A stretch of 64,000 nucleotides of DNA from Cyanophyceae cyanobacterium (GTDB taxonomy: Bacteria; Cyanobacteriota; Cyanobacteriia; Cyanobacteriales; JBHJGN01). Shown in pieces: positions 38,487 to 40,409 of this stretch. Within the stretch, counting starts at the first letter, position 1. Each line of letters begins with the position of its first letter. The stretch covers positions 37,869 to 101,868 of the forward strand of contig JBHJGN010000001.1 of NCBI GenBank assembly GCA_050331735.1. Reading direction: 5' to 3'. The translations under genes and the position numbers were made by a program. The notes below the pieces were generated by a model. That model was not told where the DNA came from. It saw only the letters and a program-made list of their open reading frames with translations, and searched no databases.

Positions 38487-40409
38487 ATGAGCCAACAATC
38501 TAACTTTCTGCCGATTTCTCGACGAACTGCTGTTAAGCTGCTAGGTGTTGGTGCCGTGGGAGGCTTACTAGGGTATTCAAGGTTTGCTAAACCTCAGCCA
38601 TCAGTCTTTGAGCAAGATCGCCTAGAGCTGCCGCCGCGACTGAATCAGCCGAAGACGGCTGTTGTCGTTGGTGCCGGTTTAGCCGGACTCGCCTGCGCCT
38701 ACGAACTCAGTCAGCGAGGATTTGCCGTCACCTTGCTGGAGAAGTCGTCTAACCTCGGCGGTAAAGTGGCGAGCTGGCAAATTCGCGTCGGGGAAGAAGA
38801 ATTTAGAATGGAGCATGGCTTTCACGGCTTTTTTCCCCAGTACTACAATCTCAATAATCTTGTCCAGGAACTGAACCTCGTCGAGAATTTTAAATCGTTA
38901 GATTTTTACTCTCTCGTTTTCCGAGATGCTGTTTATCAGCCAGAGGTGTTTCGTCCCAGTCACTCGGCCTTTCCGTGGAATATCGTTGATTTGGCGATCG
39001 CTTCTCCCAATCGTTGGCGTTGGGGCATTAATTTAGCCAAGCTCAAGCATCTGGAGGTTTTCCACGAAATTACGGGATTCAAAATTCCGAAAACCTTCGA
39101 TCATCTCGACAGGATGTCGGTGGCTCAGTGGGTTGCTCGAGATTTTCCGCAAGGTCTCTACGATCTCTACTTTCTGCCCTTTGCCAAATCGAGCCTCAAT
39201 GCCCCAGACCGCCTCAGCGCCGGAGAACTGCTCCAGTTCTTTCACTTTTATTTCTTTGGCAACCCCGAAGGGCTAGCTTTTAACGGAACTCGGCAGGATA
39301 TGGGGACGAGTTTAGTAAAGCCGATTGCGGAAGCGATAGAGCGCAATGGGGGTCGAATCATCACAGAAGCAGCAGTAAGCTCCATTACCTGTAGCGAGAA
39401 GAAGATTGCCTCTGTAAGCTATCAGCAGGGTCATCGGGCGAGTACTATCCCTTTCTGGGTGGAGAGCACAGCGCAAGACAACCAGATGAAATACTACGGT
39501 GCGGCTGATACTGTTTTTGCCGCGGCACCAGAAGGGAACGAAGCGCTGTCTCTCAAATGCACCCATCAAGGTTGTACGGTAGGACGACAAGCCGATGGCA
39601 CTTTCTTATGTCCGTGTCATGGTGCTCGTTATGATGAGCAAGGACGGGTAGTTAGCGGTCCAGCGACCAGAGATTTACGCCGTTTCCAGATTACCGAACG
39701 CAACAACCAAGCACTTCAGTTGGTAGCTGACACCTCCCTTGCCTCCCCAGAAGAGACAATCGTCGCTGATTATACGGTGATCGCCACTGACGTTCCGGGA
39801 GTGCAGCAGTTGCTGCGGCTGATGCAGGGAAACGATTGCGGAGTGAAAGCCCAGGTGGAACGATTGGCAGTAGCCGATCCGTTTGCTGTCGCTCGTTTCT
39901 GGTTCGACCAAGATTTTGAGTGGGAACATAGTCATTTCACCTCTCTTTCCGGCTATCAGCTCACCGACAGTATTACTCTTTATCACCGCATCCAGGATCA
40001 GTTTATTGACTGGGCGCAGCGCACCGGAGGCAGCGTCGTAGAGCTACACGCCTACTGTTACAAAGAGAAGGAGTTTCCGACTCAACAAGCGTTGCTATGC
40101 ACCTTTGAGCAGGAACTCTATGAAATTGTTCCCGCTTTAGCCCAGGCAAAGATGCTGCACCGGGAATTGGTTAACCAGAAGAATTTTTCTGGCTATCCTC
40201 CGAACAGCTACGATGAGCGTCCTGAAACCACCACTCAAATTCCTAATTTAGTTTTTGCTGGAGACTGGGTAAAAATGCCGTTTCCCTGCGGCTTGATGGA
40301 GCGAGCCGTCAGCAGTGGCTTGCTGGCCGCCAATGCGATTCTTCATCGGGAAGGATTGCAAAGAAAGACGCTGCTATCGGTGAATCCCGAGGGAGTATTT
40401 AAAATTTAG
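38487..40409 (+). CDS. Tat-signal FAD-dependent oxidoreductase (amine oxidase/phytoene desaturase-like) with an internal Rieske [2Fe-2S] domain
   Basis: Twin-arginine motif [20 protein letters not shown] fold [16 protein letters not shown]...EKSSNLGGK. Rieske box CTHQGC-x11-CPCHG at residues 358-379. C-terminal FAGDWV...[10 protein letters not shown]. Confidence 0.75.

Follow-up and report, generated by a model that had tools for sequence, protein, structure and literature searches.

The gene described here most probably encodes CruE, the cyanobacterial counterpart of CrtU, a membrane-associated flavoenzyme that turns the beta-rings of beta-carotene into aromatic chi rings and some phi rings. 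The protein is an ordinary CruE copy, both its Rieske insert and its export signal being already on record for the CruE family. The features of the gene are collected in Table 1; its product is called the window protein, the window being the whole stretch of DNA that was analysed (64,000 nucleotides).

Table 1. Features of the probable cruE gene, with positions in the window
Feature	Position	Strand	Remarks
cruE CDS	38487..40409	+	640 aa plus stop; probable beta-carotene desaturase/methyltransferase, carotenoid chi/phi-ring synthase
N-terminal twin-arginine leader	38487..38588	+	residues 1-34: n-region, S11-R12-R13, Gly-rich h-region 14-30, c-region SRFA-KP
FAD dinucleotide-binding beta-alpha-beta, ends LGGK	38655..38765	+	residues 57-93; NAD_binding_8 at 60-129
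Inserted Rieske [2Fe-2S] domain, all-beta (predicted)	39429..39749	+	residues ~315-421, between flavoprotein strands 306-314 and 422-425
Cluster-binding boxes CTHQGC (358-363) and CPCH (375-378)	39558..39620	+	motif scan; alignment to b6f Rieske structures
C-terminal FAD-contact segment	40254..40319	+	residues 590-611; in second Amino_oxidase stretch

The reading frame is unbroken and gives a product of 71.76 kDa. A cyanobacterial MAG has an identical protein sequence (P0001), and the window protein is collinear end to end with its homologues, which come from at least 516 matched genome stretches. An artefactual joining of separate genes, a concern of the preliminary description, is dispelled by the intact frame and the full-length collinearity. 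The antisense ORFs that lie within the gene on the minus strand, at 39312-39590 and 39675-39986, are mechanical and lack support, and a promoter/terminator scan around the gene gave nothing interpretable above shuffled expectation.

Family assignment and genomic setting

In the window protein, Pfam recognizes Amino_oxidase (E 7e-36) and NAD_binding_8 (E 6e-18), together with further FAD-fold matches. The N-terminal GxGxxG and the C-terminal FAD-contact motif of the amine-oxidase/phytoene-desaturase-like fold are both present. Among 94 diverse relatives, G62, G64, G67, E85, G91, and G92 are almost invariant, while A591, G592, D593, E605, A607, and G611 are conserved at 90% or more. The AF2 model, obtained with 94 diverse sequences, has a pLDDT of 92 and a pTM of 0.90, and the solved fold nearest to it in Foldseek is rice phytoene desaturase (PDS; 5MOG, E 3e-29, TM 0.81 normalised to PDS). 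The coexistence of a FAD fold and a [2Fe-2S] Rieske domain in one flavoprotein, as first described, is borne out by the Pfam matches and the conserved motifs.

Homologues with 70-79% identity bear the JGI names 'isorenieratene synthase' or 'carotenoid phi-ring synthase / carotenoid chi-ring synthase', which are KO-based annotations and not experiments. The best 120 matches are without exception cyanobacterial proteins of 626-742 aa that share this set of domains. A further homologue search, started from a Merismopediaceae orthologue, named Synechocystis sp. LKSZ1 and Rippkaea PCC 8801, though not PCC 6803. After clustering at 50% identity, a library contained a single close full-length cluster, which is cyanobacterial (P0121, 62%); behind it come clusters of ~35% identity and the same architecture, from Thiohalocapsa (Chromatiaceae) and Chlorobiales, which are also named isorenieratene synthase. 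The FAD-domain tree places all forms with both Rieske domain and Tat leader in one clade, sister to Rieske-less CrtU-like proteins of 500-550 aa. None of the NCBIfam models was passed, the top match being HpnE with 154 bits against a cutoff of 283, and the scores with the PDS, ZDS, and CrtD models are far below their cutoffs. The window protein is thus nearer to annotated CruE/CrtU (EC 1.3.99.39 / 1.3.99.40) than to other carotenoid desaturases, and its Rieske insert, with all four ligands and at the same site as in the Chromatiaceae and Chlorobiales forms, places it in the phototroph-type subfamily.

Within the same family, the main product could be another one, namely that of a CrtU-type phi-ring synthase (isorenieratene/chlorobactene type) instead of the chi-ring product of CruE. 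Many close homologues are labelled 'isorenieratene synthase' by JGI, and cyanobacteria with CruE make some isorenieratene and renieratene in an isomer ratio that depends on the strain (PMC7395447). The phi ring was moreover proposed as an intermediate toward the chi ring (PMC10604819). Nevertheless, the window protein lies inside a tight cyanobacterial clade and shares only ~35% identity with the Chlorobiales form, and we consider a phi-ring synthase improbable.

For CruE, the published pathway leads, together with CruH, to synechoxanthin via renierapurpurin, and CruE-positive cyanobacteria hold all three diaromatic carotenes (PMC7395447). The aromatisation was described as proceeding through a C4 carbocation, followed by methyl shifts from C1 to C2 and then from C5 to C3 (PMC10604819). 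In the published reaction, two FAD-dependent desaturations per ring are coupled to the migration of a methyl group; the resulting renierapurpurin, renieratene, and isorenieratene are the precursors of synechoxanthin.

As placed in the preliminary description, prmA lies upstream and a convergent recG downstream of the gene; serA also lies upstream. The synteny of serA, prmA, recG, tsf, and rpsB near cruE is not kept in related loci; therefore, the window's own neighbours give no hint of function. The statement that partner genes are lacking holds for the window, in which neither a second Rieske gene nor a CruH-like match was found, but not for other genomes. A gene for a CruH-type oxygenase (Rieske + VanA_C) adjoins the cruE homologue in 30 of 80 related loci, and in many cyanobacteria other than this one the surroundings of cruE include, besides such a CruH-like gene, those for an ABC-2 transporter and a TetR regulator. 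The co-occurrence with cruH, whose Rieske oxygenase yields synechoxanthin by oxidising the ring methyl, defines the synechoxanthin pathway and not the CruE enzyme. The window gene adds one orthologue to the well-distributed cruE, and its presence suggests that the organism can make the aromatic carotenoids renierapurpurin, renieratene, and isorenieratene, which bear on the reading of aryl-isoprenoid biomarkers in rocks (PMC7395447).

Leader peptide and location

The leader carries the motif S11-R12-R13-T-A-V-K, a basic c-region, and a moderately hydrophobic h-region (mean Kyte-Doolittle 1.38), in keeping with an S/T-R-R-x-F-L-K-like Tat signal. In an alignment of 21 sequences, S11, R12, R13, Y30, S31, R32, and F33 are invariant, and [ST]RR was found in every one of 80 loci, which substantiates the twin-arginine signal seen at the outset. 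In the AF2 model, residues 12-33 form a helix.

The location on the periplasmic or lumenal side, proposed in the same description, fits published data on an orthologue. In Synechococcus 7002, lumenal PsbU-APEX2 alone labelled CruE (A1248, 71.95 kDa), which did not turn up in the cytoplasmic control; SignalP5 called its leader TAT(Tat/SPI) with the site RFA-KP at 34-35, the probabilities being only 0.63 and 0.48 (PMC7880944). In Synechocystis 6803, CruE sits at the thylakoid membrane (PMC6878006). The site RFA-KP, with Arg at position -3, is a poor one for signal peptidase, and the leader of the window protein may be cleaved off as a signal or stay in place as an anchor. The strong conservation of the CruE leader suggests that it is probably retained as an anchor, as in PetC.

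A different view of the N-terminus, to which we give little credence, is that it is a plain membrane anchor, that Tat makes no use of the RR pair, and that the catalytic domains face the cytoplasm. It draws on the absence of a canonical AxA cleavage site and on a c-region which, together with the following KPQP, is unusually conserved for a signal peptide. The upstream enzymes of the carotenoid pathway act on the cytoplasmic side, and the literature found on CruE contains no test of Tat dependence. Against a plain anchor stand the [ST]RR motif of all the loci and the occurrence of RR leaders in all full-length Chromatiaceae- and Chlorobiales-type homologues, while they are rare in the Rieske-less clade. 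Rich in Gly and of no more than moderate hydrophobicity, the h-region resembles that of Tat signals, and bc-type Rieske proteins are said to be classical Tat passengers, Aldridge et al. 2008 having reportedly described Tat targeting of Rieske proteins in Synechocystis. The lumenal labelling of A1248 also speaks against catalytic domains in the cytoplasm.

The Rieske insert and a possible electron route

Pfam Rieske (PF00355) matches residues 342-400 with E 3.7e-10 and 40 bits, against a cutoff of 20.3, and in the AF2 model beta strands of the insert span residues 323-414. Alignment to the CTHxGC/CPCHG boxes of b6f structures predicts C358, H360, C375, and H378 as cluster ligands and C363/C377 as a disulfide pair. 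The box CTHQGC-x11-CPCH is the sole one in any real gene of the window by motif scan. The six Cys and His residues are invariant in the alignment of 21 sequences, and a complete box is present in 79 of 80 species loci and in all 174 full-length cyanobacterial homologues; the ligands, whose conservation had been left to be checked, are evidently kept. As the Rieske-less relatives have ~8 residues at this site, the domain reads as a clean insertion of ~110 residues into the flavoprotein fold. The earlier idea that it replaces part of the substrate-binding lobe was accordingly given up.

In NCBIfam and PDB sequence searches, the nearest kin of the Rieske segment are b6f PetC-type proteins. The first description of the domain as a high-potential bc1/b6f-type Rieske protein stands as to the type and the disulfide Cys pair, while its implication for the potential is weakened by a missing Ser. 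Instead of CPCHGSxY, the window protein has the Cys pair and Tyr382 with Ala380 in place of Ser. The position after CPCHG is Ala in 169 of 174 cyanobacterial homologues and Ser in 4, and sulfur-bacterial CrtU/CruE have Gly there, versus the Ser of PetC1 and bc1. Mutational work on bc1 implies a lower midpoint potential for a CPCHGA(R)Y motif without Ser. Judged by predicted fold and disulfide, the window Rieske domain is of bc type, but not demonstrably high-potential.

Mohamed and Vermaas 2006 reportedly were the first to propose the function of a bifunctional lycopene cyclase/dioxygenase for myxoxanthophyll, 'CrtLdiox', for the Synechocystis orthologue Sll0254, and are said to have noted its Rieske centre. 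For the window protein such a function is very unlikely: a mononuclear-iron oxygenase domain is absent, Lycopene_cycl reaches 17.7 bits, below the Pfam cutoff of 23.4, and later work reassigns the family to CruE of synechoxanthin synthesis (PMC7395447, PMC6878006). A later paper also reports finding no evidence that beta-carotene is formed by Sll0254.

In the literature, a Rieske centre is already attributed to Sll0254/CruE, and CruE/CrtU are genetically characterised. The preliminary description had recognised no characterised enzyme of this architecture, and its claim of novelty falls because the family is already characterised. No curated NCBIfam equivalog passes and the majority of database entries bear the generic name 'FAD-dependent oxidoreductase', but a new periplasmic/lumenal flavo-iron-sulfur oxidoreductase unrelated to carotenoids is hardly credible in view of the homologue names, clusters, tree, CruH-like neighbours, A1248 leader, and literature, all of which point to CruE/CrtU.

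The real gap lies at the level of the CruE/CrtU family, where the purpose of the bc-type Rieske domain and the Tat leader of the phototroph forms is not addressed in the literature searched. Our search likewise found no in vitro or biochemical study of any CruE/CrtU Rieske centre and no paper on the electron acceptor of these enzymes or on the reason for their lumenal/periplasmic side. For CruE, we propose a route in which the holoenzyme, with FAD and [2Fe-2S], folds in the cytoplasm and is moved by Tat to the lumenal/periplasmic face. The Rieske cluster would then accept the four electrons removed per ring from FAD and hand them to a carrier at the same face, which may be cytochrome c6 or plastocyanin, or c-type cytochromes in sulfur bacteria. 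Such a route would free the reaction from the need for O2.

We therefore put forward, tentatively and with more doubt than conviction, that phototroph CruE/CrtU with a Rieske domain may act as a Tat-exported carotenoid:cytochrome c6 / plastocyanin (or periplasmic cytochrome c) oxidoreductase on the lumenal/periplasmic face, by which aromatisation would deliver electrons to the high-potential chain of photosynthesis, with neither O2 nor quinone involved. If true, this role would explain why insert and Tat leader occur together in cyanobacteria, Chromatiaceae, and Chlorobiales, and why the Rieske-less CrtU-like clade lacks the one and usually the other. It would belong to the whole CruE/CrtU family and not to the window locus.

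Comparison with known systems

The closest known counterparts are the cyanobacterial CruE proteins, and the window protein falls in the only cyanobacterial cluster with this architecture. CruE of Synechococcus sp. PCC 7002 (SynPCC7002_A1248, UniProt A5A547) was compared by leader site and mass alone; the site RFA-KP at residues 32-36 is identical, and the masses are 71.95 kDa and, for the window protein, 71.76 kDa. Sll0254/CruE of Synechocystis sp. PCC 6803 has, by published description, a FAD fold with a Rieske 2Fe-2S centre like the window protein. There is no known functional difference between these two proteins and the window protein. In its surroundings the window gene differs from many cruE loci, as it stands alone between prmA and recG, without cruH, ABC-2, or TetR neighbours.

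CrtU of Chlorobiales and CrtU/CruE of okenone-producing Chromatiaceae share with the window protein the RR leader, the FAD fold, and the CTHxGC...CPCH insert at the same site. These proteins of 620-647 aa belong to the same FAD-domain clade and are ~33-37% identical to the window protein. They have Gly after CPCH(G), or a CPCHAG motif, whereas the window protein has Ala. In these anoxygenic phototrophs, CrtU/CruE forms either phi rings, as in chlorobactene and isorenieratene, or the chi ring found in okenone.

In the Rieske-less CrtU-like proteins, the FAD domain is homologous on either side of the insert, with ~30-33% identity in two stretches, and an RR leader is usually lacking. Some of them carry a lycopene cyclase fused to their N-terminus (P0138). 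They probably represent the actinobacterial CrtU type of Streptomyces griseus and Brevibacterium; two of them, P0142 and P0144, carry the JGI label 'isorenieratene synthase' only. The CrtU of Streptomyces griseus performs the same ring aromatisation (PMC10604819).

Plant and cyanobacterial PDS/CrtP (5MOG), the closest solved fold, is likewise a FAD carotene desaturase, acting on a membrane-dissolved substrate. It shares 19% identity with the window protein and has neither a Rieske insert nor a Tat leader. PDS uses plastoquinone as its electron acceptor and does not form aromatic rings.

PetC1 and PetC3 of cytochrome b6f share the CTHxGC and CPCHG boxes and the disulfide pair with the window insert. 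They are subunits of a bc complex, while the Rieske domain of the window protein is an internal insert of a flavoprotein. The best PDB sequence matches of the Rieske segment are 5cxm (E 9e-13) and b6f PetC (~1e-10), and the CPCHGA(R)Y of the window protein resembles CPCHGAEF of 5cxm and not CPCHGSQY of b6f PetC1.

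Architecture and family of the window protein

Pfam analysis of the 640-residue product (71.76 kDa), encoded in one unbroken reading frame, revealed Amino_oxidase in two stretches (E 7e-36) together with NAD_binding_8 and Rieske (PF00355; E 3.7e-10, score 40 bits, gathering threshold 20.3) domains. The Rieske segment was found closest to cytochrome b6f PetC proteins by NCBIfam and PDB sequence searches, and a motif scan returned its CTHQGC-x11-CPCH as the sole Rieske box within a real gene of the window. S11-R12-R13 and all six Cys/His residues (C358, H360, C363, C375, C377, and H378) are invariant in an alignment of 21 cyanobacterial homologues. 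Conservation of the ligands in orthologues was confirmed by the complete box in 174/174 full-length proteins and 79/80 species loci, and the [ST]RR leader motif occurs in 80/80 of these loci. Evidently, the sequence features in the preliminary description are real and non-random, and its reading as Tat leader, FAD fold, and Rieske domain was right. The uninterrupted frame, the box in every full-length homologue, and an identical database protein from a cyanobacterial MAG (P0001) rule out an assembly or fusion artefact.

Features of the window protein and its flanking region
Feature	Window (nt)	Strand	Residues	Remark
cruE ORF	38487-40409	+		
N-terminal helix			12-33	model; followed by FAD fold
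NAD_binding_8			60-129	Pfam
Flanking strands			306-314, 422-425	model
All-beta domain			about 323-414	model
Site of linker in other orthologues			between about 333 and 334	A1 (homologue alignment) columns 355-405
Rieske PF00355			342-400	Pfam
CTHQGC-x11-CPCH	39558-39620			
Residue after CPCHG	39624-39626		Ala380	
Flanking ORF, 172 aa	34938-35456	-		no Pfam match at E <= 0.001
Flanking ORF, 295 aa	43121-44008	-		no Pfam match at E <= 0.001; Glu/Leu/Arg-rich, coiled-coil look

In some orthologues (e.g., P0031, P0036, P0041, P0043, P0067, and P0073), the Rieske domain is preceded by a low-complexity, sometimes repetitive linker of 30-55 residues (e.g., GVRSQESGVRSQELGVRSQ...), which the window protein lacks.

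The best 120 database matches (67-100% identity, 626-742 aa) are all cyanobacterial with the same domain set, and JGI names, where specific, are "isorenieratene synthase" or "carotenoid phi-ring synthase / carotenoid chi-ring synthase". A scan with one genome per species confirmed at least 516 of 600 matched stretches as relatives, the best 80 of these loci being cyanobacterial without exception. A wide search covered 1.84 billion representatives after clustering at 50% identity; its sole close full-length cluster again came from cyanobacteria (Prochlorothrix P0121, 62%). Behind it stand P0123-P0132 (620-647 aa, 32-37% identity), which share the RR leader, the FAD fold, and the CTHxGC...CPCH insert; the named members among them, from Thiohalocapsa (Chromatiaceae) and Chlorobiales, are labelled "isorenieratene synthase". 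Further-off matches of 500-550 aa, aligned in two stretches without the Rieske box and usually without the RR leader, were read as putative actinobacterial-type CrtU. In a neighbour-joining tree of FAD-domain columns only, all Rieske plus Tat proteins form one clade, sister to the Rieske-less one.

The taxonomic spread of this architecture matches what is known for CruE/CrtU: CruE and CruH convert beta-carotene by way of renierapurpurin into synechoxanthin in cyanobacteria (PMC7395447), chlorobactene or isorenieratene is the CrtU product in Chlorobi (PMC9342728), and the okenone of Chromatiaceae owes its chi ring to a CrtU/CruE (PMC10604819). Since cyanobacteria have only one cluster with this architecture, the window protein is placed in the same family as A1248 of Synechococcus sp. 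PCC 7002 and Sll0254 of Synechocystis sp. PCC 6803. By this sequence-based placement, it would be the orthologue of a genetically characterised enzyme and therefore already known. Sll0254 is described as a CruE that encloses a 2Fe-2S centre of Rieske type in PMC6553663 (citing Mohamed and Vermaas 2006). The proposal that no enzyme of this architecture had been characterised was thus wrong, the Rieske centre of Sll0254 and the Tat call of A1248 being already published.

Among more distant flavoprotein clades, the Rieske insert occupies the same position. It is accompanied by a short RR leader immediately before the FAD motif in P0175, P0200, P0202, and P0243 (560-594 aa) and by no leader whatsoever in P0188, P0193, and P0269 (583-612 aa). 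P0192 (1004 aa), P0207 (1283 aa), and P0186 (891 aa) include fusions of the FAD-Rieske module with a Ferritin-like domain (PF12902) or with a YceI-like (polyisoprenoid-binding) domain. P0138 (747 aa) is a Rieske-less CrtU-like protein with an N-terminal lycopene cyclase domain.

Gene neighbourhood

The window cruE is solitary: serA and prmA lie upstream of it and a convergent recG downstream, none of which is kept in related loci. The earlier statement that no partner genes are adjacent therefore holds for the window but not for the related loci, where a Rieske plus VanA_C oxygenase (about 350 aa; read here as CruH-like) adjoins cruE in 30/80. This linkage provides independent support for the CruE assignment. 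An ABC-2 permease is present in 31/80 related loci and its ATPase in about 22, usually upstream and in divergent orientation, while a TetR regulator occurs in about 22; neither these nor the CruH-like oxygenase was found within the 64-kb window.

The recurrent order is ABC-2 ATPase and permease (divergent), TetR regulator, cruE, and CruH-like oxygenase, as in L004:8163-13276, L006:5834-10630, L014:8355-13316, L029:8136-13285, and L074:8309-13071. The exporter might move the dicarboxylic carotenoid; no mention of it beside synechoxanthin genes was found in the CruE/CrtU literature searched.

Leader peptide, probable location, and proposed electron path

In Synechocystis, CruE and CruH were localised to thylakoid membranes (PMC6878006). 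A1248 (71.95 kDa) was labelled by lumenal PsbU-APEX2 and was missing from the cytoplasmic GFP-APEX2 control, and in the supplement of that study its SignalP5 entry reads "TAT(Tat/SPI)", with a cleavage site at 34-35, RFA-KP, and probability 0.63 / 0.48 (PMC7880944); R32-F33-A34 and K35-P36 are identical in the window protein. The published labelling and this call make the lumenal or periplasmic location proposed earlier probable. The Gly-rich h-region (mean KD 1.38) is the only hydrophobic segment, the c-region YSRF..KPQP is almost invariant among the 21 cyanobacterial homologues, and no small residue stands at -3 of RFA/KP. Retention of the leader as an uncleaved Tat signal-anchor, like that of PetC, appears no less likely than its cleavage.

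Desaturation of each beta-ring at C3,4 proceeds through a C4 carbocation. The phi ring then arises by a second desaturation accompanied by a C1-to-C2 methyl shift, and the chi ring by an additional C5-to-C3 shift (PMC10604819). We suggest that FAD would take the hydrides and be re-oxidised, one electron at a time, by the Rieske centre, which would in turn reduce a p-side carrier; Tat export of the folded FAD and [2Fe-2S] protein would bring it to that side of the membrane. The same architecture in strict anaerobes argues against O2 as obligatory acceptor. No biochemical test of the FAD/Rieske electron path or of Tat export in CruE/CrtU was found in the searchable literature.

Insertion and type of the Rieske domain

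A structure model built from 94 diverse sequences (pLDDT 92, pTM 0.90) places an all-beta domain between two strands. Rice phytoene desaturase 5MOG comes nearest among known structures (E 3e-29), with TM 0.81 on target and 0.60 on query, as expected for a query with an additional domain; PPO, LAAO, MAO, and NicA2 follow, and no CruE/CrtU structure was found among solved structures by fold and PDB sequence searches. The span 305-425 corresponds to a median of about 8 residues in Rieske-less relatives vs 110-176 in Rieske-bearing ones. Therefore, the domain is a clean insertion into a hairpin and does not, as had been suggested, replace part of the substrate lobe.

The Rieske box contains the disulfide Cys pair, from which a high-potential centre had been proposed. 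PetC of b6f reads CPCHGSQY, while the window protein has Ala in place of that Ser, as do 169/174 cyanobacterial homologues (Ser in 4); the sulfur-bacterial (Chromatiaceae-type) forms have Gly. Throughout the family, this position departs from the CPCHGS of b6f/bc1 Rieske proteins. Ser-to-Ala mutagenesis in bc1 is reported to reduce the potential by roughly 100 mV. Thus, the Cys pair notwithstanding, a high-potential centre does not seem to be implied, and that reading is unsupported. The best PDB match, 5cxm, which we take to be the low-potential PetC3 of Synechocystis, reads CPCHGAEF and carries Ala after CPCHG like the window protein.
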